37,809 nucleotides of DNA, from IMG/VR virus record IMGVR_UViG_3300036760_000193, positions 155,395-193,203 of that record; one strand, 5' to 3'. The notes beneath the pieces are model-generated. The model did no database searches, had not been told where the DNA came from, and saw only the letters and a program-made list of their open reading frames with translations. Source of the DNA: a virus. Lineage: Duplodnaviria; Heunggongvirae; Uroviricota; Caudoviricetes. The position numbers were made by a program, and so were the translations under genes. Shown in pieces: positions 6,039 to 34,972 of the stretch (position 1 is its first letter; every line of letters begins with the position of its first letter).

Positions 6039-7667
6039 TTACTTAAGTCCGCCGCCATTACCCATAGAATTGAAGATGTCATCTACTTCATGGTCTTCAC
6101 TAGCTGTGTAATTAAGATGAAGAGGATTTGCAAGTCTGCTGCTTGCCTCTTTTCTAATTTTTACATTCTTAACACCATCTTCAAATGACTTGAGAGAAAT
6201 GTCATCCATAGCTAGAAGCGTCTTCACTTGCTTATTTACAGCTTTCTTCAAGGCTGCTTCTCTTGCATCAAGCAAGGTAGAACCACCCTTTATAAATACT
6301 TCAATTTCTGATTGCTCTATGTTAACCATATCTTTTTGTAACATCAAAGCAACTACTGTCTTGCAATGCTCTGTTCGTGCTTGCAACAGAGAACTAAATT
6401 TTTTGGCGTTGATTTCAGCTTCTTGAGCTTTCAATGCGGCTTCTTTCTTGTCAAGCTCTTCGGCTTTCTTCGTGATGGCAGCTTTTTCATGAGAAGCATA
6501 GGCTTCTTCTTTGCTAACTTCAGCTGGTTTTTCTTCAACTGGTGTTGGGCCTTCCATCTTAGGCTCTTCTGCTGCTGGAGCTTCTGGAGTTGCAGGAGCC
6601 ATTTCATCTTTCTTCTCAGATACACCAAGAATAGATTGAAGTAGTTTCATAACAGAAGGTACGTCGAGGCCAAAACCGTCTGGCATACGCTTCGCTTCCG
6701 TTCCTGCTGCGTCTGTGACAACGATTTCTTGAGTCTTAGGGTCTTTCTTCGCCGTCATACCTTCAGCAATTACAATTCCATCGTCCAATTTGTCAAATGC
6801 ACTCTTAGGAGCTTCCATTGGAGCTTCACCTGGTTTAGCAGGTGGGATTGGAGCATCTTCTGGCTTTTGATCTACTGGAACTTCCTCTACCTTCATACCT
6901 GGCTCTTCAACTGCTGGTTCTGCGCCGGGGAAATCTGCTTTTTTCTCAACAGCTGCTTCTTTCTTCTCAGATTCTGGCTTAGATGACTCTAAATGTGCGC
7001 CGACTTCTGTTTCATCAGCCTTGTGAAGGGCGTCCTGAGTTTTATCAGCTGCTTTGTCTTCTTTTGTCTCTTTACCAGGTTTCACGAAAGAACCTTCTGG
7101 CTTAGAAACGGTTGTTTCTGTTTTAAGGTGTTTCTCTTTCTCAGCGACTTTGAATCCAAGGCCGAGAATTTCTGCTGTTTTTGCAAAACCGACTTTCTTA
7201 AATGTTTCTACGAGTTTATCACCATAGGAAGCACTTGCTGTCCAGGAACGATACTTTTCATCCGCCAACTGGTCTTCATCCCACAAGTTTTCAACAGAAG
7301 CTTTAAGAATTTGTTTGTCACCTTGATACAATGCCCAAGATGATTTCTTAAAATCTTCATTTTTGGTGAATTCTGCACGGACATCTGTAGAAGCTGCTTT
7401 TTCTACTCCGCCCTTAGAGACTTTTTCGATCTCTTTCTTCACAGCGGTACTAAATACTTTGCCCAAAGGAGAGTTTTTTACTGCTGCGATAGCTTTGTCC
7501 AAAATTGTTTCATCAGTTTTCACTGGTTCTACTTTAACAGGAACTTCTGCTGTTTTTTCTAACTTTTTTTCCATCCATTTTGCAAATTCAATATACTCTA
7601 GAGCATTAAGCTTAGAAAGAGCCGATGGATTGGAATTTTCCGCTGTTGGCGTTACTTTGTCAGACAT
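6039..7667 (-). CDS. Putative nested in-frame scaffolding protein (MSDKVTPT...)
   Basis: Perfect AAGGAGG followed by AAAGTAAA-ATG (7665-7667), in frame, right after the protease domain. Confidence 0.6.
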   Translation of the reverse strand: MSDKVTPTAENSNPSALSKLNALEYIEFAKWMEKKLEKTAEVPVKVEPVKTDETILDKAIAAVKNSPLGKVFSTAVKKEIEKVSKGGVEKAASTDVRAEFTKNEDFKKSSWALYQGDKQILKASVENLWDEDQLADEKYRSWTASASYGDKLVETFKKVGFAKTAEILGLGFKVAEKEKHLKTETTVSKPEGSFVKPGKETKEDKAADKTQDALHKADETEVGAHLESSKPESEKKEAAVEKKADFPGAEPAVEEPGMKVEEVPVDQKPEDAPIPPAKPGEAPMEAPKSAFDKLDDGIVIAEGMTAKKDPKTQEIVVTDAAGTEAKRMPDGFGLDVPSVMKLLQSILGVSEKKDEMAPATPEAPAAEEPKMEGPTPVEEKPAEVSKEEAYASHEKAAITKKAEELDKKEAALKAQEAEINAKKFSSLLQARTEHCKTVVALMLQKDMVNIEQSEIEVFIKGGSTLLDAREAALKKAVNKQVKTLLAMDDISLKSFEDGVKNVKIRKEASSRLANPLHLNYTASEDHEVDDIFNSMGNGGGLK

Positions 7668-8516
7668 TTTACTTTCCTCCTTGGGAACAGTGCAGCCACA
7701 AAAATCTGCTTGTATTTTTTTCTTTGTTTCATCGTCCAAGCTTGCCAAGATCGTTTTCAGGTGTGACTGTTCTGTAGCGTCTAGAGAAGCATTTTTGCTG
7801 ATTTTGTTTTTCAAATTTGAGGCTATGATACCTTTAATGAACGCACTAGCATCTGCGGGTACATTAACAATTGAAAGTTCATTAAATACTAAGCCACTAT
7901 TAATAGAAAACGCCAAAGTGTCTGCACCCTTTTGAATTCCATACTCTGGAATGTCCACCTCTGCAATGTGTTTCTTCAAAATGCCAGATGGCTCAAGGTG
8001 AGCGCACTTTTGGTCATCATCTGTATGAATGACTGTACCACAAACCGAACACATAGAGGACTCGCAAGAGCATCCCATCGAAACAGTATTAAGTTCGCCC
8101 GTCTCAACCTTCCGGGAGATTTCTGGGTGGAGCTTTCTGTCTATCTTTGCTAAGCACTCTATGTAATATTCACCTGTCTCTGGGTCTTCAACAGGATAAG
8201 CGTCTAAAATTTTTCCAATACTCTTAACTGGATGATCTGATTCATGGTTCAAAAATAAATTACGGCCAGCAAACGTCGAATAAGAAGCTTCAAGTTCTCT
8301 ACGTGGAAAGTAATCTCCGTTCCCATTGGGATTCGGGACACCTTTCTCTGCACCCTGATCTCCTGCTGAAATAGCTCTAGCTCTAAAATACAAAAATTCT
8401 GCATTGCGCGGTTCAATGACTTTTTGTTCTGCCTGTGGTTTCTCGACAACGATATCTTCGAGTGTTACACCCGCAGCCGCGATCTTCACCAATGATCCAA
8501 TTTTATGTAGTGCCAT
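6039..8516 (-). CDS. Prohead maturation protease fused to scaffold/core region
   Basis: Start moved to ATG 8514-8516 (GAGGT RBS; MALHKIGS). N-domain has NGNGDYF, LFLNH (putative catalytic His), SIGKILD, VSMGC (putative catalytic Ser), a Cys/His insert and ELSIVNVPAD, as in HK97/herpes-fold prohead proteases; long E/K/P/A-rich C-terminal part. Confidence 0.8.
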   Translation of the reverse strand: MALHKIGSLVKIAAAGVTLEDIVVEKPQAEQKVIEPRNAEFLYFRARAISAGDQGAEKGVPNPNGNGDYFPRRELEASYSTFAGRNLFLNHESDHPVKSIGKILDAYPVEDPETGEYYIECLAKIDRKLHPEISRKVETGELNTVSMGCSCESSMCSVCGTVIHTDDDQKCAHLEPSGILKKHIAEVDIPEYGIQKGADTLAFSINSGLVFNELSIVNVPADASAFIKGIIASNLKNKISKNASLDATEQSHLKTILASLDDETKKKIQADFCGCTVPKEESKMSDKVTPTAENSNPSALSKLNALEYIEFAKWMEKKLEKTAEVPVKVEPVKTDETILDKAIAAVKNSPLGKVFSTAVKKEIEKVSKGGVEKAASTDVRAEFTKNEDFKKSSWALYQGDKQILKASVENLWDEDQLADEKYRSWTASASYGDKLVETFKKVGFAKTAEILGLGFKVAEKEKHLKTETTVSKPEGSFVKPGKETKEDKAADKTQDALHKADETEVGAHLESSKPESEKKEAAVEKKADFPGAEPAVEEPGMKVEEVPVDQKPEDAPIPPAKPGEAPMEAPKSAFDKLDDGIVIAEGMTAKKDPKTQEIVVTDAAGTEAKRMPDGFGLDVPSVMKLLQSILGVSEKKDEMAPATPEAPAAEEPKMEGPTPVEEKPAEVSKEEAYASHEKAAITKKAEELDKKEAALKAQEAEINAKKFSSLLQARTEHCKTVVALMLQKDMVNIEQSEIEVFIKGGSTLLDAREAALKKAVNKQVKTLLAMDDISLKSFEDGVKNVKIRKEASSRLANPLHLNYTASEDHEVDDIFNSMGNGGGLK

Positions 8517-8517
8517 T

Positions 8518-8937
8518 TTATACCTCTTGTACGTTTCCAAAACTATCAACTTGAAGATTTGGAAGGCCGTCTCCCATAACAACTACACTACAATTGTTAT
8601 CTCCTGGGTGTGATCTCTCAAATATCGGTGCGTCATGTACTAACCCAGATAAAAAATCTTCCAAAGTCCATTGTTGGTTATTCAACTCTACGCATACACT
8701 ATGATTCGACATTCCAGAATTCCATTGAACTGTCTGATACCCGTCATGTAGCAAATTTTCAAGTGTGGGTCTAGACAAGTCCTGTCGGTTATTACCGATA
8801 GCTTCTTTTTTAATGTCAAACCGAGCTTCTTTCTCTGAGGTGATCTTGTTCTTTACTACCTCATCAACCCAGGTTGCAAAATTATTCGTGTTTTTCTCCA
8901 AGCTCATATCCGTAGGACTCCAATATTTTTGACCCAT
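8518..8937 (-). CDS. Minimal MuF/SPP1 gp7-like head morphogenesis protein
   Basis: Between portal and protease; 'W...CVELNNQ...F...HPGDNNC' resembles the MuF C-terminal C...HPxC motif. Start may be the ATG at 8907. Confidence 0.5.
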   Translation of the reverse strand: MGQKYWSPTDMSLEKNTNNFATWVDEVVKNKITSEKEARFDIKKEAIGNNRQDLSRPTLENLLHDGYQTVQWNSGMSNHSVCVELNNQQWTLEDFLSGLVHDAPIFERSHPGDNNCSVVVMGDGLPNLQVDSFGNVQEV

Positions 8938-9151: not shown

Positions 9152-9205
9152 TTTCTGCTCCTTGTCTTTTCTTTTGTACAGGCGTAATTGTAAGGCAACA
9201 TGCCT

Positions 9206-9475: not shown

Positions 9476-9479
9476 ATAA

Positions 9480-11126
9480 TTATTCTCCTGGTACTGCTGG
9501 TGCTGTAGGGGCTTCCCCTCCTGGGGCACCGCCTGGTGTTGCTTCTCCTGCTCCAGGTTGTCCTGGTTCGCCTGGTTCTTGTGGCATAGGCGGTAAATCA
9601 CCCACACTCATTTCACCACCACCTGGAAGCTTACCACCACCTCCACCGCCTCCACCACCGCCACGGCTAGGTTTGCTGATGCTCTTAGGGAGTCTACCGT
9701 CTTTTGATCCTTTATCGAATATCGTACCACGTTCATCTTCAAGATTCTTAAGTTCCTCATCATAATTGATATTAGGGAACTTAGAAAGAAGCGTTTTTGT
9801 AGAAAGCAAGCCCTTCTCCCAAAAAGCAATGAATCTCTCTTTCTCATCATGCTCTTCTTCGATGTCCAAAGACTTGTTCCAAGAGATGGTAGGAAGGATC
9901 AACTTCTTTTTACCATTATCTGTGGTGTAAAAATTATTCTTTTTGGCAATAGGTCTGAAATACTTATTTATCATCCAGTTCTCGAACCTGTCACGAATGA
10001 CTTTGTATACCATCATTAATTTGTGCAAGGCCATTGTCTTCACATTACTAAATGAAGGCCCTTCACCCAATATGATGTTCTTGTTAACACCCAAACCTAC
10101 CAATAGTTGGTCATGGATGTATTCATACTCATTGTTGATTGGAAACTGCTTACCAAGAGTGCTCAGAGCTTCGTACTTAACAATATCTGGGTACACAATT
10201 GTAAATGGAGGCTGCTGCAATGCCTGGTTAACCATTGATCGAAACTCTTCCAAATCCGCATCTGTCGGATTAATGTTATTGGCAGGGTCTCCGATTTTCC
10301 ACAATTCTACTGGAAATACATAACGCTGAGCAAATGCAGACTGCGCCAAACGAATCCAGTCCTGATAAATTAAAACTTTGAAAAGACATTGAATAGGACT
10401 TGTGCCTCTTGTAGCTGACGGATCAGTCGTGTTGGCGATAATAGAAGCGTGTTCTTCGCTGATAGGAATGTTCTTTCCATTCACTACGGCATCATACGCC
10501 TGGGGAGCTTCTTTCTTCAAACGCTCAATACGAGTTTGATCTTCGTCTTTGGTACTTTTGACAAGCTGTTTAAGCTCTTCATTGGGGACAAGTTCCATAG
10601 TCATCTTACCCTCGAACATGTCATACTGGATTTCTACATATTCTGGTTCAAGAAGAACGAATTTCTCCCAACGATATAGACCGTCTTCGCCTTTTGTCAT
10701 GTTACCAAAGGGAATGGCCTCTCCGAACTTCTGATAGCTTAAGCTGGCCTTTAATAGGAAGTCAAACAAGTCAAAATTCTCATTGAAAGACATTTCTTTG
10801 TAAAACTCTGTGATAGATTCATCATCTGTGCTGATTTCAAACTTAGAAAATGGATACAGGGAGTGCATTATAATAATTTGCTGGACATATGGCTCCAGGT
10901 TGAAGAATATACGCGCCCACTTCAAAATTTCTTGTCTAGATTTTGGAAGTAGCCATGATTCTGTCGTTAATTCTGGTGAATAGAAAAATGAAGACGTAGT
11001 TTGGACGTTTGTTGTCGCCGTCTTTTGCATTCCTCCACTATATGACCCGAATGAAAACGTTGACCCCGTTGTGGTCTTACCGCTTTTCTTTACAAGTCCA
11101 CCTGATTTTGCTTTACCTTTTGCCAT
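9480..11126 (-). CDS. Portal protein
   Basis: 548 aa downstream of terminase; 'RIFFNLEPYVQQII', 'FGEAIPF', 'RGTSPIQC', 'LLVGLGVNKNII' portal-like motifs; Gly/Pro-rich C-terminal tail. Confidence 0.8.
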   Translation of the reverse strand: MAKGKAKSGGLVKKSGKTTTGSTFSFGSYSGGMQKTATTNVQTTSSFFYSPELTTESWLLPKSRQEILKWARIFFNLEPYVQQIIIMHSLYPFSKFEISTDDESITEFYKEMSFNENFDLFDFLLKASLSYQKFGEAIPFGNMTKGEDGLYRWEKFVLLEPEYVEIQYDMFEGKMTMELVPNEELKQLVKSTKDEDQTRIERLKKEAPQAYDAVVNGKNIPISEEHASIIANTTDPSATRGTSPIQCLFKVLIYQDWIRLAQSAFAQRYVFPVELWKIGDPANNINPTDADLEEFRSMVNQALQQPPFTIVYPDIVKYEALSTLGKQFPINNEYEYIHDQLLVGLGVNKNIILGEGPSFSNVKTMALHKLMMVYKVIRDRFENWMINKYFRPIAKKNNFYTTDNGKKKLILPTISWNKSLDIEEEHDEKERFIAFWEKGLLSTKTLLSKFPNINYDEELKNLEDERGTIFDKGSKDGRLPKSISKPSRGGGGGGGGGGKLPGGGEMSVGDLPPMPQEPGEPGQPGAGEATPGGAPGGEAPTAPAVPGE

Positions 11127-11128: not shown

Positions 11129-11416
11129 TTATTCTCCTCTATTCTCTTTCTGTTCTTTTTCTTCTAATACTTTCGCCTCTTCTAATTCATCTGCTTCTTG
11201 CTGTTCAGTTTGCTGTTGTACCTCTATCTGTATGCCTTTATCAACACTATTAATGCCTTTCTTTAGGCAATTAATTGAGGCAACAAGATATTCCTGCGCC
11301 TGTAATAAATCATTTTTATTGTACTTCGAAAATTTACCACGTACAGATTCAAACACATCGCTGACTGCGATGAGATTGTGAACAACTTCTTTTAATGTTC
11401 TGTATTCGCGGCTCAT
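11129..11416 (-). CDS. Hypothetical helical protein between terminase and portal
   Basis: ATGA overlap with terminase stop; acidic tail. Confidence 0.6.
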   Translation of the reverse strand: MSREYRTLKEVVHNLIAVSDVFESVRGKFSKYNKNDLLQAQEYLVASINCLKKGINSVDKGIQIEVQQQTEQQEADELEEAKVLEEKEQKENRGE

Positions 11417-13029
11417 TTCAAGTACCTATTGTCTTCTTTTTTGTTGCTCATGATACGACTTTGAGCACTGATCCCACTACTAATCTTAGGAGTTGGGATT
11501 TTGTATGTAGATGCCATTGCTGCTGGGAATGAATTACTTTTATCCATAGCCCATACTGCCAAAACATCAGCAGAACAATGGTCATCATGTAAATCTGATG
11601 GGGCTTTAATCTTATCGTTAATACCCCCACCGCCAGCTATATGACGTTCGATGTTACACCACTCATTGTATGACTTCTTAAAAACTTTATTTTTGTCTAT
11701 CGTGTCCAAAGATGGGAATAAAACGCGACCCTCATCCAATTCATGCTTGAACTCGTCAAACATGGCATTTTTATAATTCTTCTTAGATTCGCTCTCTTGT
11801 CTACCAAACATGATTCCCTCAATTGGGATTCTTTCTGCTTTGAAAAACGGAATAATAGCTTGAGCCACGTTACTGTGGTCAGCGATACCAAATACACAAG
11901 GAAAATCTCCAGTTATAGGATGAATGATCTTTTTAATTTCTTCCCACTGTGTAACTATATCCCCTTGCCACTCAAAACAAGCTACTTTCTCTTTAACATT
12001 ATCACCACGCTTACGCCAAATAGATAATGCTGTAAAGTCTAAATCTTTCTTCTTAGGCTGCAATGATCCTGGGGCGGTATCCAGACCAAAAAAGTAATGT
12101 TCTTTTAATTCAGGACGCGCATGTTTCAAAATACTATGTGTCCCACTTATTAACATCGCTTGCTGACGTTCGTTCAAGTCCAAGTCGATATCAGACACCC
12201 ACTCCATTGCGAACTGTGTCTTGTATTCAAAATCTGAGTATTCTCCTTCATAATGAAGGTCTGGACGATCTGGAAACAATACTTGCTTCGTATTCAATGA
12301 CAATTTACGAACGATATGATCGGGATAGTCAATTCCATTGTAACGGAACGAACCACTTGTCTTCAGAATATCGCACTCAAGCCAATTACGCTTCAGAACA
12401 GTGTAGTCTCTGCTGGCTACACAGCTTTTCCAAAAATTGTTTTTAGCAGCAGGTATACCGATTTTAATAGTTTTTGCCATCGCAAAACTACCTAACATTG
12501 GGTTGATGTGCTGATTAACTACAGCGTCTTCAATTCTATGACACTCGTCTAAGACGATGACATGAAAATGCCAACCTTCTTTCTTGGTGGTTGGAGCCGC
12601 TGACATCGCTAAAATTTCTGATCCATTATTAAAAATTAACCGAGACTTCACAGAGTCTTTCCAATTGATCTTTGAGTGCATTACTGTACCAGGCTTAATA
12701 ATGTTCTTTCTGATTTCCTCAATAATACGTATGGCCTGGTCTGCTCTGGGGGCGAATACTCCAATCTTGATTCCGCGCTGTCTAACACACAACTTTGAAA
12801 GGGCAATACCTACTGCAAAGGTTTTACCTGCACCACGGGCTTGCATTACAGCTAAATTTTTTATTTGGGGGTTTAGGACGGCGTTTACAATTTCAATCTG
12901 ATTATCATATAAATCTATGCTCAGATTTTCGTAAATCCAACGAGCAGAATTGCTTGCTGATCTTAGAAGTTTTGTGGCCTTCGTACTTAATGTTTCTACA
13001 CTATCAAGTGTTTTTTTCCGAAATATCAT
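11413..13029 (-). CDS. terL: Terminase large subunit
   Basis: Q motif (LYDNQ), Walker A QARGAGKT, Walker B VIVLDE, RNase H-like nuclease motifs FGLD and HDDHCSAD. Confidence 0.9.
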   Translation of the reverse strand: MIFRKKTLDSVETLSTKATKLLRSASNSARWIYENLSIDLYDNQIEIVNAVLNPQIKNLAVMQARGAGKTFAVGIALSKLCVRQRGIKIGVFAPRADQAIRIIEEIRKNIIKPGTVMHSKINWKDSVKSRLIFNNGSEILAMSAAPTTKKEGWHFHVIVLDECHRIEDAVVNQHINPMLGSFAMAKTIKIGIPAAKNNFWKSCVASRDYTVLKRNWLECDILKTSGSFRYNGIDYPDHIVRKLSLNTKQVLFPDRPDLHYEGEYSDFEYKTQFAMEWVSDIDLDLNERQQAMLISGTHSILKHARPELKEHYFFGLDTAPGSLQPKKKDLDFTALSIWRKRGDNVKEKVACFEWQGDIVTQWEEIKKIIHPITGDFPCVFGIADHSNVAQAIIPFFKAERIPIEGIMFGRQESESKKNYKNAMFDEFKHELDEGRVLFPSLDTIDKNKVFKKSYNEWCNIERHIAGGGGINDKIKAPSDLHDDHCSADVLAVWAMDKSNSFPAAMASTYKIPTPKISSGISAQSRIMSNKKEDNRYLK

Positions 13030-13645: not shown

Positions 13646-16600
13646 TTACTGCGCCAGTTGTGGAGATTGTTCGGAACCTGTGGCTCCTGTAAGTGCTTGA
13701 TAAGCGGCATTTACATTCTCCAACATATAATTGATTATGTCCATCATGTCAGCCCGTTTGTCAAAACGTGACAGTTGTTGACTTTGTGCTTTAGGGAAAG
13801 GAATGATCTGACGCTTCTCAACTGGTTTTGCATGGGCTTGTGCGCCATTCAAAGCATTTTCTAAATACTTAGTGATCTCAGGGAATTTCTCAATTGCAGC
13901 CTTCAGCTTCTCTGTTGCCGTCCATTTAATCTCTTCCTTACCTTGTTCTTTAACATAGGCAAGGAGTGTGCTATCGACTTCAACGACTTTGGCATTCAAG
14001 GTCTCAAGAGCAGAATATAATTTTTGTATGCCCACTTGATATTGCTCTGTTAATGCTTGTTCACCACCTTGTTCTTTGACTTTACGAGCATCATCTACGG
14101 CCTTTTTCATAATCTCATCAGCAGCAGTTTTGAGCATTTGAATCTTTATCTCAGTATCTTTAACTTGATTGTATAAATTATTTACAATGTCAGGAGCCAA
14201 AACAGGAGTTTCTTCTCTCAAACCTTCGGGGGCTTTCTTCCAAGGTTTGGTCATCTCTGGGCCTTTAATTTCTGGCTCTACGGCAGGTTTAGGATCAGCT
14301 GGAGATACAGTTTGTTTAGGAACCTTATCACCAGGAGCAGCTTCCTTTTCCTTACCATATTTAGAACAATTGGGGCATTTGTTATCGGGATGCAATGGAA
14401 GGTCTTTACGACCACATTGGGTGCAAGGAACATTTTCATCTTTTGGATCAAAGCCATAAGGATTCTTAGAAGCTGCTTCTTTATCTTCTACACTTTCGTT
14501 ATCAAACGCCCAATGGCAAGAGTCACATTTATTTAATTTATGGCCGAAAGCGGGAGTGACATTTGTACTACCACAATGTGGGCATTTAAGTTTAGCAGGA
14601 GCCGCTTCTTTCAAAGACGATGCCATATTCTCTTTTTCTTCATTTGCTCTTTCTTGTGCATTAGAAAGAATACTATAAAGTTGTTTATAGTCTACATCTA
14701 TGCTCACGCCACTTACATTTTGAATTTGATAATCACTGTACCCCTTCTCTTCCAACATTTCAGTGACACGTTTAGCAAGTGCACCTGTAATGTTCTTCTC
14801 ATCCAAGCTGGGGTTTTCTAAAATTTTACGTATTACTGGATCAGATTCTAATTCATCAGTATTAAGCCATGCTCGAACCCACGCATTTGCATCAGCTTTG
14901 GATTCTGCTTCTTTTGTAAGTTCCGCATCAACACCTTTAATCTCAGCCATGATAGATCGCAACTCTGCTTGGGCACTTCTAGCTTTTTCTTGTTCGCGTT
15001 TTCTTTTACGGTCAGCAGCAAACTTTACAAGGCGTCTAAATTCCGAAGCACGTTTAATATCACGCATAGGAACATCTTTGATGTCCCCATTAACATCTAC
15101 AAAACCAAATTCATCTCCACCAGACGAGAATTTTCCAACTAAAGTACCTTCATACCCACCTTCTCCACTCTGATAGTCTTTCATGACATAAACTTTAGCA
15201 TCTGGGCCAGGAACAATTTCATCTTCCTGTACCTGCATAATATCACCTGGGTCTGGCGAAGCAGCTGGGTCGTCCTTCATGTCATCTGACATGTTCGTTT
15301 CGTCAGGTAGAAAATCAAAATCTTTTCCCATCTCAGGACGAGATTTGGGGATAGTTTCAAGAGGTTCTTCTGCCACTTTCTGTATTTCTACACTTTGGGT
15401 AGCAATCTCACCTAATGCCATATCATGTTTTTCTATTTCATGTTCCAATGGTGGTTCAACAGCCGGGGGTTTTGTTTGATCGTCTACTTCTTTGACCAAT
15501 TTATCATGGGTCTCAGGAGAAACTAAATCTGCTGGGGGTTTTGGTGCTGAGGGGGCAGCTGGAGCCGCTGGGTCTTTAACTGGAGGTTGCCCAGGAGTTT
15601 GACCAGGTACTCCACCGTGTTCTGCTTCACGAAGAGCATCAATGTATGCAGCAACACTATCTTTATCATATTGTAATTCTTTGGTAAAATAGTTCTTAAT
15701 TTCTTCCCAGGTACGCCCCTTCGTTCTAAAAGCATCAATAAGTTCATCATCAGTTTCGTCAAATGTGGATGCTACTTTACGTTCAAGAGCACTTTTAACT
15801 TGGTCTTTAACTTCTCTCTCTATACGTTTTGTTAAACTCTTTGATTCTTTGGCCTTATTTTTCTCGTAATCCTCATATGACAAAGATGATGGAGCCAAAC
15901 CATCTTCTGGTTGATCTTCACCAAGTCCTTCTCCAAGACCTTCCCCTGGCATTTTGTTCTTATCCATTGGAGGAAGATCGTCTTTGAAATCACCAAGTTG
16001 CTTACCACCAGGTTGATTTTTCTTGTTCATTTCCTGGTATTTCTGTAGCTCTTCTGGCGTTTCAAAAAATAAATTTTGCATAACTACTTTGGCAACTTTA
16101 CCCAAAGAAGACTTCTTCTGTTGCGCCTTCCACGAAGCCCATTCTTTGATCCACTGATTCAGTGTTTTTTCGTCAATATTAAATCCCATACCTTCTTCAT
16201 TAGCAACGTACATGAGATGATTCATAATATCGTCTTGGTCAGCAATATATCCCATACGAGAATTTTCTTCTTCGTATTGGCTAAGAACTTGGTCAATCCA
16301 TTCAGGGCTACCAACATCTTTAGATGTGTCGTCGATATCATCCAATTCATCTGCTTTGACTTTCTTAGAGGCATTTGTATTTGTAATTGGAGCGGGGCTA
16401 CCGTCAACAAGTTCATCGGTATAAATAGAATAACGTTTTAGGAGAGAACGAACAAGAGAAGCAGCGGATTCCATTTTCTCTGTTCTGGTAAGGTCAGCAG
16501 CCTCTTGTAGGTCGGACTTCATTGACCCATACAAGTTTTGGGCTTGCATTTCATCTTGAAATTGTTTTTCGTAAACTTTGTTCTTAGAATCAGTCCAAAA

Positions 16601-16756
16601 TAAAGAAACCACAGATGTAGACGACTGATCTGTGGATGGGGTGTAAGCAAGACTGATTGAACGTACATTACTTCCTACTGCTGTAGGGTCAACGACGTTA
16701 AATCTTTCCATCACTGGCTGTTCAGAAGCAAATAAATTACGTAAAAATTCGTACAT
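13646..16756 (-). CDS. Large modular acidic protein with K-x-A linkers (putative internal head protein)
   Basis: 1036 aa; small domains, two Zn ribbons and a C-terminal coiled coil separated by SLGKVA, LERKVA, IQKVA, LVKFA, LTKEA, SSLKEA, DKEA, EKEA, FDKRA. Confidence 0.7.
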   Translation of the reverse strand: MYEFLRNLFASEQPVMERFNVVDPTAVGSNVRSISLAYTPSTDQSSTSVVSLFWTDSKNKVYEKQFQDEMQAQNLYGSMKSDLQEAADLTRTEKMESAASLVRSLLKRYSIYTDELVDGSPAPITNTNASKKVKADELDDIDDTSKDVGSPEWIDQVLSQYEEENSRMGYIADQDDIMNHLMYVANEEGMGFNIDEKTLNQWIKEWASWKAQQKKSSLGKVAKVVMQNLFFETPEELQKYQEMNKKNQPGGKQLGDFKDDLPPMDKNKMPGEGLGEGLGEDQPEDGLAPSSLSYEDYEKNKAKESKSLTKRIEREVKDQVKSALERKVASTFDETDDELIDAFRTKGRTWEEIKNYFTKELQYDKDSVAAYIDALREAEHGGVPGQTPGQPPVKDPAAPAAPSAPKPPADLVSPETHDKLVKEVDDQTKPPAVEPPLEHEIEKHDMALGEIATQSVEIQKVAEEPLETIPKSRPEMGKDFDFLPDETNMSDDMKDDPAASPDPGDIMQVQEDEIVPGPDAKVYVMKDYQSGEGGYEGTLVGKFSSGGDEFGFVDVNGDIKDVPMRDIKRASEFRRLVKFAADRKRKREQEKARSAQAELRSIMAEIKGVDAELTKEAESKADANAWVRAWLNTDELESDPVIRKILENPSLDEKNITGALAKRVTEMLEEKGYSDYQIQNVSGVSIDVDYKQLYSILSNAQERANEEKENMASSLKEAAPAKLKCPHCGSTNVTPAFGHKLNKCDSCHWAFDNESVEDKEAASKNPYGFDPKDENVPCTQCGRKDLPLHPDNKCPNCSKYGKEKEAAPGDKVPKQTVSPADPKPAVEPEIKGPEMTKPWKKAPEGLREETPVLAPDIVNNLYNQVKDTEIKIQMLKTAADEIMKKAVDDARKVKEQGGEQALTEQYQVGIQKLYSALETLNAKVVEVDSTLLAYVKEQGKEEIKWTATEKLKAAIEKFPEITKYLENALNGAQAHAKPVEKRQIIPFPKAQSQQLSRFDKRADMMDIINYMLENVNAAYQALTGATGSEQSPQLAQ

Positions 16757-18407: not shown

Positions 18408-18803
18408 CTATATAGCCTGATGGCCTTTTAAGTATTCTTGTGCTTTCAATTTGAAACGCTCAAAAATCCCAAGATGTGTGTTGCAAGTACCACACAGTAA
18501 ACTCCTAACAACTCCTGTTTCATGATTGTGGTCTACTGATAGCCTTCGCACAGTATCTTTCTGATTTATTCCGCAAATTGCACAACACCCATTTTGTTTA
18601 TCAAACAAATAAAGGTACTCTTCAAAAGAAATTTGGTATCGCGCTTTAATATTGCGCTTGTAGTGCGCCAACTGTCCCTTAAGAGTGGTATTATATTCCC
18701 TCTGACAACGTTTTATGTTTTGTCTTCCAGTGTCAGACTTCCTATATTCTTTCATGTAAACTGCTCTTTCTTCTTTTGTCATCATAATTGTATGTCTAGA
18801 CAT
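18408..18803 (-). CDS. Endonuclease VII-family (His-Me finger) free-standing homing endonuclease
   Basis: QNGCCAICG...LSVDHNHETGVVRSLLCGTCNTHLG. Confidence 0.85.
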   Translation of the reverse strand: MSRHTIMMTKEERAVYMKEYRKSDTGRQNIKRCQREYNTTLKGQLAHYKRNIKARYQISFEEYLYLFDKQNGCCAICGINQKDTVRRLSVDHNHETGVVRSLLCGTCNTHLGIFERFKLKAQEYLKGHQAI

Positions 18804-26949: not shown

Positions 26950-27379
26950 GCGCCTTTTGATTGAACCCCTTATCTTCTAAAATTCCCAGGCGGACATTAC
27001 AACGATAACATAACAATCCACGTACTGCCCCTGTTTGGTGGTTGTGATCCACGGCTAAAGAACTTTTAAGTTTTGATTGGGGCGTTCTACAAATAGAACA
27101 TTTTCCCTGCTGACTCTTATAAAAACGCTTGTAATCTTCTATTGTAAATACAGACCCGTCTAAATTTCTAATGCCTTGAATTTTCCACGCCGCTTTACGT
27201 GCGGTTTCTCTATGTTTTTTAAGATTCTTCTTTTTGCATTTGTAAACAGATTCCTGAAGTTTTTCAGGATTTTCTTTACCCCATTTATGGCTGTGTTCTC
27301 GTCTGCATTCTTTACAAACTTTGTAAGAATCTCTACCTACTACAAATGTGTCATGTTTACGTTTACAGAATTGTTTCAT
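26912..27379 (-). CDS. Endonuclease VII-family free-standing homing endonuclease
   Basis: N-terminal CKRKH...CKEC; QQGKCSIC...LAVDHNHQTGAVRGLLCYRCNVRLG. Confidence 0.85.
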   Translation of the reverse strand: MKQFCKRKHDTFVVGRDSYKVCKECRREHSHKWGKENPEKLQESVYKCKKKNLKKHRETARKAAWKIQGIRNLDGSVFTIEDYKRFYKSQQGKCSICRTPQSKLKSSLAVDHNHQTGAVRGLLCYRCNVRLGILEDKGFNQKAHEYFNKNQQCVS

Positions 27380-27380: not shown

Positions 27381-28091
27381 TTACTTCAAGTCTTTCAAGA
27401 AGAACCTAACGGCGTCTAAACTCTGCGCGATATTCAAATGCGTCACACCGAATCCTACAATGAATCCGGCAGTAGCAATACCAACTAGCTTACCATCATC
27501 ATCAAATACCGTGCTTCCTGAATTGCCTGGAAGAACACCACAATCCAACAAAATATGATCTCCGTCTATTTTCGCAATGACTCCCTCTGAATAGGTGTCT
27601 TCAATGCCCAATGGACTTCCAATAATATGAATCTTTTGCCCTCTTTTAATCTCCTTAGCCAGGACAAAGTGCTGTGTATTAGAACGGTCGATATGAATGA
27701 CAGCCATATCATGTGCAACAGATACACTACTTACAATAGCAGCATAGTGCTGTTTATCAAAGGTTTCTACTTCAATAGAGTCTATGTCTCTAGTGCAGTG
27801 CTTAGCGGTCAAAATGTCTCCATGATCGTTGATAAAGGCACCAGAACAAACGTAATGGACTTCCCTCGATCCGTTAAAAATAGCTTTCTTCTTTTTAGAA
27901 GCTTCTGGATAATCTGGGATTTCTACTAATCGCGTGATATGAAGTTCTACGATTTTTTGTTCTACTGGAATAATCACGGGGGCTACTACAACAACAGGTG
28001 CTGGTTTTGCAACTTTCTTAGCTGCAAAAACCGTCGGTATCGAATTCATAATCAAGGCAGTGCAAAATAAAAGGGTCAAAAGTCTCTTCAT
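27381..28091 (-). CDS. Trypsin-like serine protease with signal peptide (no PDZ)
   Basis: MKRLLTLLFCTALIMNSIPTVFA signal; CSGAFI, LTAKHC (His), HDMAVI (Asp), PGNSGS (Ser); GGAG RBS. Confidence 0.85.
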   Translation of the reverse strand: MKRLLTLLFCTALIMNSIPTVFAAKKVAKPAPVVVVAPVIIPVEQKIVELHITRLVEIPDYPEASKKKKAIFNGSREVHYVCSGAFINDHGDILTAKHCTRDIDSIEVETFDKQHYAAIVSSVSVAHDMAVIHIDRSNTQHFVLAKEIKRGQKIHIIGSPLGIEDTYSEGVIAKIDGDHILLDCGVLPGNSGSTVFDDDGKLVGIATAGFIVGFGVTHLNIAQSLDAVRFFLKDLK

Positions 28092-29531: not shown

Positions 29532-30191
29532 CTACCTTAAGTAGGTATTTGTAACTTCTAATAAAATTGTAGGGGAAATTGTAACTCCCACTTTTTTCAT
29601 TTCAGCCACGGCGTAATCTAATGCCCGATTCTGAGGATGCCCATTCGTTATAGCTTCATAGTAATGTGCCACAGCAGAATTGTATTCTGCACCATACTGT
29701 GCAGCAACTTGATTCATTTGCTCTTGACTCAATGGGTTGTCGTAAGCTCTTTTATCAAGTCGTGACAAGCCAAACTCAGATGTCACAAGGTCTTCATCTG
29801 ATGGATCATCTTCGCGGCCTTTTGGAAGCCATTGGACAGAAGGGAAATCCCCCTTTGGGTCTTTACCTAAATCTACTGGACTATCAAAAAATCCAAAATC
29901 TGAGGTTTTCTCATTGCTAACAACCTTTCCATATTCCTGAACGATATCATCAAAAGAAATGGCTGAGCCATTATCTAATTCTATCATTTTCAAGCGCATA
30001 TCTATGTGAGCGGGTTTTCCTAAAACGGTTGGATTTTCAAGAAAGTATTTTACAGCATCATTTAAGGAGATGCCCTTAGACTTACTTTCTTTAGCGGCAG
30101 GATCGTACCACATACCTTTTGGGGGTGCCCCGATTGGTTGTGCTTTTTCTTGACCAGGCCACTTATCGTCAAACCTAGAAAGCCTATCCAC
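29532..30191 (-). CDS. Hypothetical protein with an LDKRA linker
   Basis: GTG start in operon; C-terminal helical module follows SRLDKRA. Confidence 0.6.
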   Translation of the reverse strand: MDRLSRFDDKWPGQEKAQPIGAPPKGMWYDPAAKESKSKGISLNDAVKYFLENPTVLGKPAHIDMRLKMIELDNGSAISFDDIVQEYGKVVSNEKTSDFGFFDSPVDLGKDPKGDFPSVQWLPKGREDDPSDEDLVTSEFGLSRLDKRAYDNPLSQEQMNQVAAQYGAEYNSAVAHYYEAITNGHPQNRALDYAVAEMKKVGVTISPTILLEVTNTYLR

Positions 30192-30196
30192 AGGAG

Positions 30197-32980
30197 TTAG
30201 TAGGTAAACTGAGTGTCAGCTACCATGTCCCATGTATTTGAATCTATATTGAACATCCACTTCATGCCTTGTGGCAGAGTAACGCTAGGTTTCGGAGGCA
30301 GCGCAGCTTCGGTTTCCACAGTCTCAGGAGCCACATCAGCAGCTTGAGTTTGTGTCTGCAATACCTCTTTAGTTTGAGTCATTTTCGTTCTCATCTGTTC
30401 TACATGATCTGTAAGATCATCGGCTTGGATGCGAAGTCCTTTCTCTTTTGCGAACTTCAAAAACTTTTTATAGCAATCTGGGCAGTCTTTAGCTAAATCA
30501 TTCAAAACTTTAACACTTTTAATGCGAACAATTTTATCCGTTTTGGACAAAGGCATAAGAGATGCTTCATGATCCTTTTTTTCTTTCTTACGCTTGCAAT
30601 CACGGCAAAGAACCTCTTCACTATATGTCATTGGAACTACGGCCCCACATTCTTTGCATTTTTGATCTAAATGAGGTTTACGGTCTGCGACGATCTCGAA
30701 ATCGAACCTGTCGAAGGATGTCCAACCAGTAACGCTCTTCATTTCCAAAGAAGCAAATTTAGCTTCTTTGCGTTTAACATCAATACTTACAATTTTAACT
30801 TTGTGTCCCTTCTTCAGAACAGAAAGATTTGTTTTCAGCGTTGCTCTTACAAGATCACGGTTTCCAAGCTCATTAAATACAATTTGTTCAATCTCAGGTT
30901 GAGATAGTTCATGATCTTTCATTGTAATTGCCATAATCTGTTGCCCTTGGTCATCAAAAATAACCCAAGCATCAGGAACACCAGGTTTACCGCTAGTTCT
31001 TTTAGCTGTCCACTTACGATTGGCAATATTCAGTTCCATTGTTCCTGTTGGCTCAGCTGCATTCAGAGAAACATCTTCGTCACGCTTTGGAGCTACTGCC
31101 ATACCAGGACGGTCTCCACCATATCCCATTCCGTCACCTTCTGCTCTTTTCTCTTTTTGTGATATTTTAGGACGGTATGGTTCAGTCCAAGTTGATTTGT
31201 TTTTTTCTTGGTCAATTAATTCGTGCATAAGTTCTGGGTCAACAACTGGTGGAGCTTCCTTAAGTGATTTGTTATAAGATTTCTCCCATTGCTTAAAAGG
31301 GACACCTACTGGAGCAAATTTTGTGCCTTCCTCCCCTGTGAGACCATATTGATAGGCTCTTCCATCATAAGTGAATTGTAAGTCTGTTTTTGGATCACCG
31401 TATTTATCAATGTATTGTTCAAGTAAATAATGCGTATATGTATCAAATAAATCTGCGTTTTTATCTAAAGAACTTTTATGGTGCTTAAAATATTCAACTT
31501 GTCGAAGTCTTTTGACAGCTTTTTCTTTGCTATCATAAGGCCCTCCAAGATTTTTTCCCTCTTCTGAAAGTACATGCCATCCGTCCTTTTCATGGACTAC
31601 ACGGCCTTCAACTTTCAAGGAAGCTTCTTTTTCTTCTACAATAGACCAACCACTTTTCATGGCACGATCCCAAGATAAATCTTGAATACGATGAAGTTTC
31701 ATAAGCATCTCATTATAGGATGCTCCTTCACCACGGACTTCTCCATTGTATTTAAGAACAAACTTGCCACGCTTCAAAAAAGCTCTCTTCACGAAATTTG
31801 TGCATTTGCATTCGTCACATTTTGTTTTACCATCATCTGTTTCATGGTCGAATTTCATGTGTCCACAAGAGCACTTCTCGTAAGAAATTTCCCTTGAAGC
31901 TTCGGCTTCTTTATCATTGTGCATAAAGGGCTGCATTAAATATTTGTCAGTTTTACATTTAGGACATTCTGTGATATCTTCGTCATAAACCCCGTAGCAA
32001 TTATTGCAACGAACTTTATCAGTGACTTCCTTGGCAGCACGTTTTCTTAGATCAGAACCTTTATAGGCTCCAAATCCATGATCTGCTGCCAGCTTTCCAG
32101 TATCCCAATGAACATAGGCCATATCTTTATCTGCGTCATAACGCATGACACGACCATATGATCCAGCAGTACCATAAACAGGTTCTACAAGATCATCAAG
32201 AGCAAACTTACTCACATCTGCATGTTTGTCCGTTGTTGCTTCTGGTTTTATTTCAGTTTCTTTAGGAGTTGCTTTTTGGCCTTCCGCATAGTAGTCCCAA
32301 GGTGTTTGCTGATTAACCGCAAACTCTTTGTTAAAACACGCTTTAAGTTTTTCACGATCTTCTTCATTTTGTACCCTCTCTATTGCTCTCTTGAATTTAA
32401 CAATGGTGTCATACTGTGGGTCGTCGGCCATAATCAAATAATCGAGCATTTTCATGTATAAGGCTGATGCAATCATTGAATCAAATTCTGGGTCTTTTGT
32501 TAAATCCATTTTATCCAGTTTTTCTTCTGGTTTAGGCACTTCAACTTTTTTCTCAGGTTCTGGTGTAGGGGCTGGGGTTACTTCTGGTGCTGCTTCAGCG
32601 GTAACTGCTGGAGCTTCAACAGATGCGTCAACTGGAGTAGCTGCAACGGCAGCAGGATCAATAACTTGTTGGTCAACTGGCAAAGGAATAGCAGAAAGCA
32701 TACCACCAGGGGCGGCTTCTACTGGAACAGTTTCTGGTTTTGCTTCTTCAGAAACAACAGTCTGTGTGGCAAGTTCTTTTTCTCTATTTTGTTTCTCAAT
32801 AGAACGTTGTTTCTTTTTCTCCTGCATATCAGCATAACGAACTTCTAAATCTTTAAGACTATCAATAGCTGATTTTAACTCAGATGGATTAACTTTGCTC
32901 ATGTCGAGACTATCAATACGCTTACGAAGTGTATGAATTTGAGTGTAGAGACCCGCCTCTTTTTGAATGGTTGCGTTCAT
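30197..32980 (-). CDS. Large modular protein with K-x-A linkers (putative internal head protein)
   Basis: AAGGAG RBS; IQKEA, DKHA, SKFA, LRKRA, DKEA, FVKRA, EKEASLK, SSLDKNA, EKRA separate SH3-like, Zn-ribbon and other small modules. Confidence 0.7.
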   Translation of the reverse strand: MNATIQKEAGLYTQIHTLRKRIDSLDMSKVNPSELKSAIDSLKDLEVRYADMQEKKKQRSIEKQNREKELATQTVVSEEAKPETVPVEAAPGGMLSAIPLPVDQQVIDPAAVAATPVDASVEAPAVTAEAAPEVTPAPTPEPEKKVEVPKPEEKLDKMDLTKDPEFDSMIASALYMKMLDYLIMADDPQYDTIVKFKRAIERVQNEEDREKLKACFNKEFAVNQQTPWDYYAEGQKATPKETEIKPEATTDKHADVSKFALDDLVEPVYGTAGSYGRVMRYDADKDMAYVHWDTGKLAADHGFGAYKGSDLRKRAAKEVTDKVRCNNCYGVYDEDITECPKCKTDKYLMQPFMHNDKEAEASREISYEKCSCGHMKFDHETDDGKTKCDECKCTNFVKRAFLKRGKFVLKYNGEVRGEGASYNEMLMKLHRIQDLSWDRAMKSGWSIVEEKEASLKVEGRVVHEKDGWHVLSEEGKNLGGPYDSKEKAVKRLRQVEYFKHHKSSLDKNADLFDTYTHYLLEQYIDKYGDPKTDLQFTYDGRAYQYGLTGEEGTKFAPVGVPFKQWEKSYNKSLKEAPPVVDPELMHELIDQEKNKSTWTEPYRPKISQKEKRAEGDGMGYGGDRPGMAVAPKRDEDVSLNAAEPTGTMELNIANRKWTAKRTSGKPGVPDAWVIFDDQGQQIMAITMKDHELSQPEIEQIVFNELGNRDLVRATLKTNLSVLKKGHKVKIVSIDVKRKEAKFASLEMKSVTGWTSFDRFDFEIVADRKPHLDQKCKECGAVVPMTYSEEVLCRDCKRKKEKKDHEASLMPLSKTDKIVRIKSVKVLNDLAKDCPDCYKKFLKFAKEKGLRIQADDLTDHVEQMRTKMTQTKEVLQTQTQAADVAPETVETEAALPPKPSVTLPQGMKWMFNIDSNTWDMVADTQFTY

Positions 32981-32992
32981 GTGGGCTGCTCC

Positions 32993-34972
32993 TTATTTCG
33001 CGTCTTGAGAATTGATGCCGAGTTCTTTTTCTTTCTCTTTGGAAATTTTCTCAGTAGCAACAGGTGCTACTCTAGCGATGATTTCTTCCCCACGGTCATT
33101 TTTAACGACTTTCCACGGAGATTCTATTTCTGCAACTTTTTTCAAAACTTCTTTCTTGGAAGCATGTGGTTGGATTTCCCCCATCGAAGCTTCTGGTTCA
33201 GCTGGAGCTTCTTCTACTTCTGATGTTTCAGCTGGAATATCTTCTTCAAAATGTCCACCTACTTCATACCAATCAACACTACGCATAGAATTGGAAATGA
33301 GATCAGCATACATTGATGCTCCAAGATCAGGTTGAGATTCCTCTACTAATTGTTTGATTTTCTCACCAAGGTCTCCAGCACCTTTAGAAGACTTTGCCAA
33401 TTCAATAACAGTGCGATACATACCCTCATCATTATCTAACCACAAAGCTACGATCCACGTTTCATAATTTTTCCATCCCTGATAACCATGTTCTTCTTGT
33501 GGAAGGGTAACAGGTGCTGGGGTTGCTGGCGGTGCAGCTTCTTTTTCTTCTACTTGTGGGGGTTTAGGAGCAGGTTTGCCGTGTAATGGATCGTTCTCTC
33601 TGACATCATCCATCAATTCATCAGCAGTTTTCAAAGAGGCTTCTTTTGGTTCCTCTTTTTTGTCTTCTTTCTTAAGGTCTTTTACTTCTTCCTTCTCATG
33701 CTCAGGAGTTTCACCAGGTTCAGAATGAGGTACATCAAGTTTGTCTAAGAGTTTATCTTCTGGAGAATCTTCTACAACTGTTGGGACACCAGGCATTGGA
33801 GCGGCCATAGGATCAACGACGGGAACGGTTGGAGCCATCTCTTCAAATTTCTTATCAATAGTGTCTTTGATAAGCTTATCAACTTTTTTCTCAATAATTT
33901 CAACGGGAGATGCAGCTTTTACTTTCAAAGAAGCTTCTTTATCTTTCTTACCATGACCGCATGTAACGCATGTAATGCTACCGTCTTCATGTTTACGAGC
34001 AGTTTTACTATCACAAGTTGGGCACTTAACAAATTCTGTTTTAGATGCTTCTTTACCCACTTGGCCTTTTTCTTCCTCTTTACCTACGCCTTCCATCTGT
34101 TCAAGTTTTTCTTTATCCGTTGTGGCATCAAATTTGGTCTTAGATTCCCAAGCCATTTTGCCTTCTTTCCACTCACTATAAAGGTCTTTCTCAGCAGCAT
34201 GTTTTACTTCTGAATCTTCTAATTCTTTGAATGATTTCTTCCAATCTACAAGTGTATGATTCCCAAGAAACTTAACAAGCTTTTTCTCAGCAGCATCACG
34301 ACCAGAGGCAACGGATTTCATTGCATCTTCTTTGTATTCATTGTGGCTAAGTGTGGCTACACCTTTTTCAATGCACTCATACTCAGCAATCATTTCAGCT
34401 AGGTTGTAATCGGAAAGACCTTTCACTTTAATTTCATAGTCTTTCTCAATTGTTTCTTCGCGTGTATCGCCCTTCTCATAAGCAGCGATTTTTTTGACAC
34501 CTGGTTGTTTCTTAGAAGCATCCCAATCTGGACGATCTGTTCCACGTTGTTCAGGTACTTCTTCAGGAGCTTCATTTTCAATATCTTTCAAAATTGTTCC
34601 TTGTTCGTCAAGATAACCTTGGTCGATAAGAGATTTTGCTGCACGACCATAACTACCTTGCAGTGACCACGCATGTCCGTTTTTAATAAGTTCACTAAAA
34701 AGTTTTAGAATTTCTTCATTTCCAAGATCACCTTGTTCAAAAGCCATGATTGCACCGACTTCATCAAATGGTTCTGCAACTCCACTCATTTGCTCTTCCG
34801 CAGCTTGTTTTGCAGCAGCTTCTTTAGCGAGAGCAACTTCATCAATCTCCATCACGTCTTTAACCCAATCGTTGGACTGAACCTTACGTTCCCACTCTTT
34901 TTCCTGGTTTGTTAATTCGGCTTCTTTCGAAATGCCGTCTTTATCTGAAAACATGTCATGTATCCAATTCAT
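32993..34972 (-). CDS. Modular acidic protein with K-x-A linkers (putative internal head protein)
   Basis: AAGGAG RBS; ISKEA, KKIA, VKHA, GKEA, KEASLKVKA, KEASLKTA, EKEA, LKKVA. Confidence 0.7.
   Translation of the reverse strand: MNWIHDMFSDKDGISKEAELTNQEKEWERKVQSNDWVKDVMEIDEVALAKEAAAKQAAEEQMSGVAEPFDEVGAIMAFEQGDLGNEEILKLFSELIKNGHAWSLQGSYGRAAKSLIDQGYLDEQGTILKDIENEAPEEVPEQRGTDRPDWDASKKQPGVKKIAAYEKGDTREETIEKDYEIKVKGLSDYNLAEMIAEYECIEKGVATLSHNEYKEDAMKSVASGRDAAEKKLVKFLGNHTLVDWKKSFKELEDSEVKHAAEKDLYSEWKEGKMAWESKTKFDATTDKEKLEQMEGVGKEEEKGQVGKEASKTEFVKCPTCDSKTARKHEDGSITCVTCGHGKKDKEASLKVKAASPVEIIEKKVDKLIKDTIDKKFEEMAPTVPVVDPMAAPMPGVPTVVEDSPEDKLLDKLDVPHSEPGETPEHEKEEVKDLKKEDKKEEPKEASLKTADELMDDVRENDPLHGKPAPKPPQVEEKEAAPPATPAPVTLPQEEHGYQGWKNYETWIVALWLDNDEGMYRTVIELAKSSKGAGDLGEKIKQLVEESQPDLGASMYADLISNSMRSVDWYEVGGHFEEDIPAETSEVEEAPAEPEASMGEIQPHASKKEVLKKVAEIESPWKVVKNDRGEEIIARVAPVATEKISKEKEKELGINSQDAK

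Follow-up and report, generated by a model that had tools for sequence, protein, structure and literature searches.

Head-protease motif systems are already known from phages of the T4 and phiKZ type. In herpesviruses, the release and maturation sites of the assemblin UL26/UL26.5 conform to (V/L/I)-x-A↓S, where the arrow marks the cut. Mass spectrometry of giant-phage proteases revealed that they cleave themselves, recognize a common motif and cut propeptides several times; gp245 of phage SPN3US cleaves itself and processes nine head proteins, in which it recognizes A-x-E at 14 sites and prefers Ser at P1' (PMC10052503, PMC5694885). Here we describe a phage head module in which another tripeptide, Lys-x-Ala (K-x-A), recurs in a fused prohead protease-scaffold protein and in its large neighbors. 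The module lies in a phage genome from a sediment metagenome (IMG/VR record IMGVR_UViG_3300036760_000193), a single contig of 193,203 bp. The window analyzed here, to which positions refer, is its last 37.8 kb (37,809 nucleotides). The excess, conservation and placement of the motif make it reasonably probable that K-x-A is recognized by the prohead protease that the phage itself encodes, which would be the N-terminal assemblin/gp21-fold domain of the protease-scaffold. The Lys-x-Ala flavor of the motif, the long segmented scaffold fusion and the extent of modular cargo appear to be undescribed in the literature that was searched.

Excess of K-x-A in the head-cluster proteins

An earlier note on this DNA had proposed that one and the same K-x-A linker punctuates the protease-scaffold, a small MuF-like protein and several large neighboring open reading frames (ORFs). 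The pentapeptides on which it based this are indeed present in the 847-amino acid (aa) ORF at 6039-8582, as LVKIA (residue 31), ISKNA (261), LEKTA (341), VEKAA (393), VEKKA (545), ITKKA (703) and IRKEA (809), and IKKEA occurs in the MuF-like ORF at 8518-8937. The hexamer KEASLK was found three times as well (31613-31630, 33923-33940 and 33629-33646); its copies differ by synonymous codons and are therefore not DNA repeats. The protease-scaffold gene, the large modular proteins, the 219-aa ORF, the S1 peptidase gene and all candidate sites described below are on the minus strand, as are nearly all genes of the window.

The seven head-cluster proteins named or implied by the earlier note were pooled (6,855 aa). 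They contain 102 copies of K-x-A against 52 expected from composition (z = 6.9), an enrichment that none of the other gapped dipeptides, about 2,000 in all, reaches. Shuffling within 20-aa blocks, which preserves local composition, gave 53.3 ± 6.8 copies (z = 7.2). The control patterns, each to be compared with an expectation of about 53, occurred 40 times (A-x-K), 41 times (KA), 38 times (AK) and, with marginal enrichment, 66 times (K-x-x-A, z about 2), and K-x-E was depleted. Among the X-x-A patterns K-x-A was the only one enriched, and among the K-x-X patterns Ala was much the strongest, with K-x-V next (z = 3.0). The extended forms K-x-A-[SA] (33 vs 7.7 expected), [LIVM]-x-K-x-A (38 vs 11) and KEA (26 vs 6) were also in excess; the middle position favors Glu, Thr, Arg and His and is never Asp. 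V/L/I-x-A is at or below expectation in this phage. The excess corresponds to about 50 sites, so that chance accounts for roughly half of the 102 copies.

The excess is spread over the protease-scaffold (19 observed vs 11.4 expected from composition) and the ORFs at 13646-16756 (16 vs 9.1), 16972-18396 (8 vs 3.1), 18868-26949 (24 vs 11.4), 30197-32980 (17 vs 8.5) and 32993-34972 (16 vs 7.4). The 219-aa ORF at 29532-30191, which the earlier note had counted among the members, has 2 copies vs 1.3 expected and no family match, and its membership is unsupported. Outside the pooled set the other 260 ORFs of the genome hold 196 copies against about 220 expected, without any excess. A ranking of all 267 ORFs by Poisson p placed the large head-cluster proteins at six of the eight lowest values. 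The absence of the pattern from the terminase (3 vs 3.9), the fibers (0-1 vs 0.7-2) and the deformylase (0 vs 1.1) was as had been supposed; for the portal the supposition holds for the overall count (3 vs 2.4) and fails for one plausible N-terminal site, which is discussed below.

Conservation and placement of the motif

Comparison with homologues showed that K-x-A ranks first among residue pairs for retention above the level predicted from the flanks, both in the protease-scaffold (18 sequences) and in the family of the 659-aa protein (11 sequences). The conserved K-x-A islands sit within hypervariable linkers, and because the codons of the sites vary like the remainder of the genes, selection acts on the peptide and not on the DNA. 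In 49 related cargo proteins, whose counts are not independent, K-x-A was found 625 times vs 338 expected (z = 17.5), first of 400 patterns.

The motif also tends to mark module borders. Structural modeling of the 659-aa protein placed 11 of its 16 K-x-A copies within or beside linkers of low confidence, and the four best-kept sites are located at transitions between a folded module and a linker with a low predicted local distance difference test score (pLDDT). Internal ends of BLAST matches to homologues fell within six residues of a K-x-A more frequently than under circular shifts in the families of the 1036-aa protein (P = 0.0025) and the 927-aa protein (P = 0.03), and an association with break points was likewise found in the protease-scaffold family (P = 0.02). 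The most distant protease clade lacks the site following the protease domain, and its scaffold shows no excess of K-x-A, which is a hint of co-variation between protease and motif. Relatives with Leu, Ile or Val at orthologous sites indicate that the actual rule probably reads (K/L/I/V)-x-A, with a small residue next.

The protease-scaffold protein

The prohead protease-scaffold fusion gene (6039-8516) encodes a protein of 825 aa in which a protease domain, matching the PHROG head maturation protease over residues 85-248 (4e-16), is followed by about 580 further residues. Translation likely starts at the ATG at 8516 (MALHKIG...), as judged from the 89 metagenomic homologues, which all begin M-A/x-L-x-K-x-G. 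The mechanically called ORF begins at a TTG at 8582; the start used by the homologues is 22 codons later and removes the overlap with ORF 8518-8937, of which the true start is probably some 10-16 codons downstream of the listed one.

The protease domain (7824-8426, ORF residues about 53-253) carries an invariant His, an invariant Ser and a Cys/His cluster. When the domain was modeled with AF2, pLDDT exceeded 90 from residue 31 to residue 230 in the numbering of the called protein. Its top 46 Foldseek matches in the PDB were all herpesvirus proteases and T4 gp21 (5JBL among them), with the assemblins of KSHV, EBV, PRV, HCMV, HSV and VZV followed by gp21. The list is homogeneous and the Foldseek probabilities were mostly 0.9-1.0. 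A search of PDB sequences with a protease-scaffold profile gave nothing meaningful, and the family was identified by the fold search only. The domain is thus predicted, marginally by score, to fold like herpesvirus assemblin and T4 gp21.

Residues H91, S146, C149, C156, C159, C171 and H173 are invariant in 25 homologues. H91 and S146 are 55 residues apart and H173 is another 27 residues on, a set that may form the catalytic triad, although H173 may instead bind a metal together with C149, C156, C159 and C171. The invariant Cys/His cluster directly after the putative catalytic Ser146 (window 7900-8150, residues 146-173) suggests a metal site inserted into the assemblin fold. Asp222, which stands in the sequence VPAD and is replaced by Trp (VPAW) in some homologues, was considered as the residue binding the Lys of the motif and rejected, since two Trp homologues still have ISK-x-A-S-L.

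The candidate sites are distributed over the whole length of the protein. Directly after the protease domain, in a disordered segment (residues 233-245) past the last strand of the AF2 model, is the candidate self-release site ISKNA↓SL (K-N-A at 7788-7796), of which ISKNA↓S persists in relatives that are no more than about 50% identical and is kept by 94% of 17 homologues. A candidate site for removal of an N-terminal leader, LVKIA↓AA (K-I-A at 8478-8486), lies in the N-terminus, which is disordered in the same model. Its K-x-A is kept in most relatives, sometimes shifted by three residues (K-T-A), and is replaced by R-x-[AG]-S in the most distant clade. In the scaffold, the twin sites KEA↓A and KKA↓D (6936-6962), kept in 82% and 88% of homologues, are found inside an indel-rich Pro/Glu/Lys linker; AKTA↓E is kept in 82%, and ITKKA↓EE (K-K-A at 6462-6470) is invariant in 18 sequences. 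About 35 residues before the C-terminal IF-SMG tail, IRKEA↓SS (K-E-A at 6144-6152) is present in the closest relatives, with K-x-[AS]-S variants in others. Complex prediction for the protease domain and the linker GQVGKEAS from the 659-aa protein gave a score of 0.10, which is uninformative either way.

Candidate sites in the large modular proteins

The 659-aa protein (32993-34972) has the candidate sites ISKEA↓E (34919-34927), VKKIA↓A (34484-34492), GQVGKEA↓S (34046-34054) and LKKVA↓E (33131-33139) and two of the KEASLK copies (33923-33940 and 33629-33646). Among 10 homologues the N-terminal leader M-x-N-W-I-F-D-x-F...K-E-A is retained in 70%, VKKIA↓AY and GQVGKEA↓S in 100% and LKKVA↓EIESPW in 90%, while the flanks of the sites are 39-61% identical. 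In relatives GQVGKEA↓S is followed by wholly unrelated inserts, mostly zinc ribbons.

The 927-aa protein (30197-32980) carries an N-terminal IQKEA↓GL (32954-32962), the third KEASLK (31613-31630) and LDKNA↓D (31454-31462). The N-terminus of this family, M-x(1-5)-K-x-A↓G-L-x-T-Q-I, is conserved in about 30 homologues, with Ile or Leu sometimes taking the place of Lys. Bounded by the KEA and the KNA is a DUF2188-like mini-domain of about 50 aa (31463-31621, residues 454-506), with a sub-threshold match to Pfam DUF2188 and the sequence RVVH-x-KDGWHVLSE-x-GKNLGGPY...RLRQVEYFKH. It is 60-82% identical across about 45 large, otherwise diverged proteins of related phages, where it can be internal, N-terminal or C-terminal. 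In most relatives it is preceded by [K/V/L/M]-x-[A/G/S]↓S-L and followed by K-K-A↓[DE] or [V/A]-x-A↓[DE]. Its carriers are far less conserved than the mini-domain itself, which may therefore have a conserved binding partner.

In the 1036-aa protein (13646-16756) the N-terminal leader ends in NLFA↓SEQP, and N-termini of its family have the form ...[LI]-x-A↓S-E-Q-P. K-x-A copies are found at the module borders at 16091-16099, 15371-15379, 14906-14914, 14603-14611, 14474-14482 and 14339-14347. Inserted modules come with sites of their own, as in the case of a 90-residue insert: relatives that lack it have a single S-L-x-K-E-A, relative L003, which has it, shows K-x-A on both its sides, and this phage keeps the C-terminal one only. 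The 474-aa protein (16972-18396) contains ITKTA↓G (17221-17229) and FTKVA↓P (17011-17019), both kept in three of three orthologues.

The largest protein, of 2693 aa (18868-26949), is a multi-enzyme chain with HAD/SIS-like, 2H phosphoesterase and low-molecular-weight phosphatase domains and repeated W-x-x-P-x-G modules. The edges of its Pfam and PHROG domains (321-429, 595-683 and 2463-2594) adjoin K-x-A copies at residues 312, 427, 547, 723, 2456 and 2606, and six diverged W-x-x-P-x-G modules each start 4-14 residues past a K-x-A. These modules were recognized solely by their common W-x-x-P-x-G starts; BLASTP comparison of the protein with itself, also at lax thresholds, detected no repeats.

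Zinc-ribbon modules of the type CxxC...CxxC/H were observed between K-x-A sites in three proteins (33950-34040, 14340-14600 and within 30197-32980). Among homologues these modules are exchanged for unrelated zinc ribbons.

Candidate sites in the MuF-like, portal and major capsid proteins

The small MuF-like protein has a single site, IKKEA↓IG (K-E-A at 8800-8808). Its orthologues have K-E-A, L-L-A or I-E-A at the equivalent place, ahead of a conserved GN-RQD. In the portal, MQKTA↓TT (K-T-A at 11016-11024) is a candidate N-terminal leader site. Six of seven portal orthologues have [ML]-x-K-x-[AG] there, in a hypervariable N-terminus right before the conserved portal core. The C-terminus of the portal (window 9480-9700) consists of the Gly run GGGGGGGGG and a Pro/Glu/Gly-rich tail, which varies in length and sequence among relatives. 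The major capsid protein (MCP) contains MQKIA, which is conserved, as is the entire MCP; phage G has V-A-L-A at this place.

Proposed processing and alternative explanations

If K-x-A is recognized by the prohead protease, Lys would likely occupy P3 and Ala P1, with Glu, Thr or Arg favored at P2 and Ser or Ala at P1', and the chain would be cut after Ala. From gene position and by analogy, about 6,000 aa would be capsid-internal cargo. Cleavage of the motif, its position, the enzyme responsible and the location of the substrates within the capsid are all inferred. In the proposed course of events, the protease-scaffold and its large neighbors would co-assemble into a procapsid, in which the protease would free itself at ISKNA↓S and remove its own short N-terminal leader. 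It would then chop the long scaffold at the conserved linker sites, so that the pieces can leave or rearrange, trim the short N-terminal leaders of the cargo proteins and split the multi-module proteins into separate domains, some of them enzymes (2H phosphoesterase, phosphatases) that would go on to travel with the DNA. The earlier claim of a K-x-A-specific protease that processes itself and about 6000 aa of cargo is partly supported, and its main idea accounts best for the findings: the motif is enriched, conserved and present in border linkers, and the protease has an assemblin/gp21-like predicted fold, the known members of which rely on just this kind of shared motif. It needs amendment in several respects: not every K-x-A is a site, as roughly half of the copies are expected by chance, ORF 29532-30191 has no excess, the MuF-like protein has one site, and the specificity is probably not strictly K-x-A.

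The weakest competitor to processing by the prohead protease is that K-x-A is a by-product of Lys/Ala/Glu-rich disordered or coiled-coil composition, which is hardly credible. The earlier note had itself considered such an origin, and the proteins are rich in Lys (7-13%), Glu and Ala, with about 52 of the 102 copies expected by chance. The composition-keeping block shuffles nevertheless left a z of 7.2, and no reversed or shifted pattern showed a similar enrichment: the counts of A-x-K, KA and AK do not exceed expectation, that of K-x-x-A exceeds it marginally (z about 2) and K-x-E is depleted. K-x-A is moreover the best-retained residue pair in homologues. Composition bias, being contradicted by both the local shuffles and the retention, was rejected. 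A non-proteolytic linear motif, acting as a docking tag for the scaffold or capsid interior, as a helix cap or as a joint for module shuffling, is improbable. Several conserved copies do begin helices or conserved modules (VKKIA-AYEKGD, LKKVA-EIESPW), and modules are clearly shuffled between proteins. Against such roles speak the copies that end very short N-terminal leaders, that stand inside long disordered linkers far from folds or that directly follow the protease domain, where assemblin-type enzymes release themselves. The varying codons argue against a recombination joint at the DNA level, and a multi-enzyme chain as long as 2,693 aa would be difficult to account for if it were not processed.

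That K-x-A is a cleavage site read by another enzyme we regard as quite unlikely. The candidates are a host protease or the trypsin-fold S1 peptidase encoded at 27381-28091 (Pfam Trypsin_2, 2e-20), which would cut after Lys. A trypsin-type pocket would suit the conserved Lys, two K-x-A copies follow the hydrophobic N-terminus of the S1 peptidase itself, and its gene is conserved in the lineage, being located in distant relatives between the portal and prohead protease genes (L005 7069-7767, L006 5959-6660). This N-terminus resembles a Sec signal peptide, however, and orthologues carry the lipoprotein lipoboxes L-Q-A-C and L-P-A-C, so that the enzyme is probably exported and would not meet procapsids in the cytoplasm. 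The strict Ala after K-x, the Ser or Ala that comes next and the replacement of Lys by Leu, Ile or Val in relatives fit cutting at A↓S by an assemblin-type enzyme and not cutting after Lys.

Several observations weigh against processing of K-x-A by the prohead protease. Taken singly, the proteins are of modest significance (p of 7e-4 to 2e-2), and the signal becomes strong only on pooling; the candidate set was initially chosen by eye, though the genome-wide ranking recovers it, and counts over homologues are not independent. The Foldseek scores of the protease domain are marginal (E 7e-4 to 5e-2, TM 0.2-0.55), and the search for protease residues that co-vary with the motif, which the earlier note had suggested, gave no clean case. 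The break points of the 659-aa family have no significant association with K-x-A (P = 0.32). Conservation may in places be structural, as for ITKKA↓EE, which is in a helical region, and for MQKIA of the MCP, which is in a well-conserved region. No proteomic or biochemical evidence of cleavage was found for this phage or in the phage G literature that was read, and a 2025 phage G paper gives no cleavage sites.

Processing by the prohead protease would make the mature products of about 6,000 aa of orphan protein predictable, as some 40-50 modules, several of which are enzymes resembling counter-defense or RNA-repair activities. It would also provide a phage head protease with a herpesvirus-like A↓S site, unlike the Glu-specific T4/phiKZ-like enzymes, which bears on the evolution of specificity. 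More tentatively, and with somewhat less than even chances in our estimate, a (K/L/I/V)-x-A↓small-residue grammar could be shared by a whole clade of large phages, among them uncultured 180-210-kb sediment and soil phages and phage G, such that any module between two sites of a head-module gene is loaded, freed and delivered. The complete set of capsid-delivered effectors (2H phosphoesterase, phosphatases, DUF2188-like and zinc-ribbon modules) could then be read from sequence, and modules would evolve as cassettes that move between proteins with their flanking sites.

Genomic setting of the head module

The head module includes genes assigned by family matches to the large terminase (11413-13029), the portal (9480-11126) and the MCP (4343-5311). 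A 157-aa protein is encoded between the protease-scaffold and MCP genes, and the gene order portal, small genes, protease-scaffold, 157-aa protein, MCP is shared with seven related contigs. Upstream of the module are five large proteins without family assignment and the 2693-aa protein, and the window further encodes a peptide deformylase in addition to the trypsin-fold peptidase.

The nearest cultured relatives are distant: the MCP of phage G is 28% identical and so is the protease of cluster C mycobacteriophages. The head module gave no megablast match to cultured phages, and a pattern-based scan of viral contigs that used the protease as query found no relative. Metagenomic homologues numbered 89 for the protease-scaffold, 22 for the 659-aa protein, 50 for the 927-aa protein and 95 for the 1036-aa protein. 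In a search of sequencing runs no RNA run matched, and the one DNA match was a sediment metagenome, probably the source of the contig.

Genes of the endonuclease VII family flank the 2693-aa gene on both sides (18408-18803 and 26912-27379). Related contigs have GIY-YIG and endonuclease VII genes elsewhere in the head module and a LAGLIDADG insertion in the portal (L009 5674-8604), and homing endonucleases seem to be frequent in these head modules. About 20 tail- or fiber-type proteins (genome C1 106075-159644; window up to 4250) contain extremely little Lys (1.7-3.5%), Arg (1.2-4.3%) and Glu but much Asp, in contrast to the head-internal candidates with 7-13% Lys. Avoidance of Lys and Arg on the virion surface might be linked to trypsin-like proteases, including the exported one of the phage.

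Comparison with known systems

Phage G of Bacillus (Lysinibacillus) provides a comparison in a cultured phage. In its head module, gp7-gp21 taken without selection (NC_023719.1 7298-40131), K-x-A is the first pattern with 38 copies vs 19 expected, and K-x-A-[SA] occurs 14 times vs 2.7; the protease gp19 has 8 copies vs 2.4 and gp21 has 7 vs 2.8. Candidate sites are found at the N-terminus of the protease, behind its catalytic domain and at either end of the portal protein. The genome of phage G is much different in size (498 kb), and gp19, of 300 aa, is not fused to a scaffold. Since the same excess is found in a cultured phage, the prediction can be tested directly by virion proteomics.

SPN3US gp245, phiKZ gp175 and the protease of 201phi2-1 share with the system described here an assemblin/gp21-fold protease and a three-residue motif common to the substrates. 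In those phages the one enzyme processes many head and ejection proteins besides itself and favors Ser at P1'. It cuts after Glu (A/S/G-x-E), whereas the pair conserved here is Lys-x-Ala, in which Ala is the probable P1 residue. The present protease also differs in being joined to a scaffold of 580 aa, and some of its candidate substrates are very long and built of exchangeable modules. T4 gp21, acting on gp22, gp23, IPI-III and Alt, offers the same protease fold, the removal of leaders at a motif and internal proteins that are delivered with the DNA. Its motif is L/I-x-E with Glu at P1 and its cargo proteins are single-domain and not polyproteins; a capsid-targeting sequence of the T4 type was not recognizable in this phage.

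The herpesvirus UL26/UL26.5 system is the best structural match and resembles the phage protein in being a protease-scaffold fusion with a release site, here a candidate one, just after the protease domain. The fixed Ala of the phage motif and the Ser or Ala in excess after it may correspond to the P1 Ala and P1' Ser of herpesviruses. At orthologous sites, relatives of the phage also have Leu, Ile, Val or Met at the putative P3, as herpesvirus assemblin does, and the rule is probably the assemblin consensus with Lys as an extra P3 residue that is preferred in this phage. The differences are the P3 Lys and the number of sites, with dozens of candidates in at least six proteins here vs two in one protein of herpesviruses; at 10-13% identity the sequences of the two proteases are not detectably related.

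Finally, the large modular proteins recall the polyvalent proteins of phages and conjugative elements, reportedly described by Iyer et al. in 2017, which are said to be very long and to consist of unrelated enzymatic modules that are delivered to the recipient cell. Unlike in polyvalent proteins, a recurrent motif that also occurs in the capsid protease-scaffold separates the modules of the phage proteins, and this suggests that they are processed inside the capsid.

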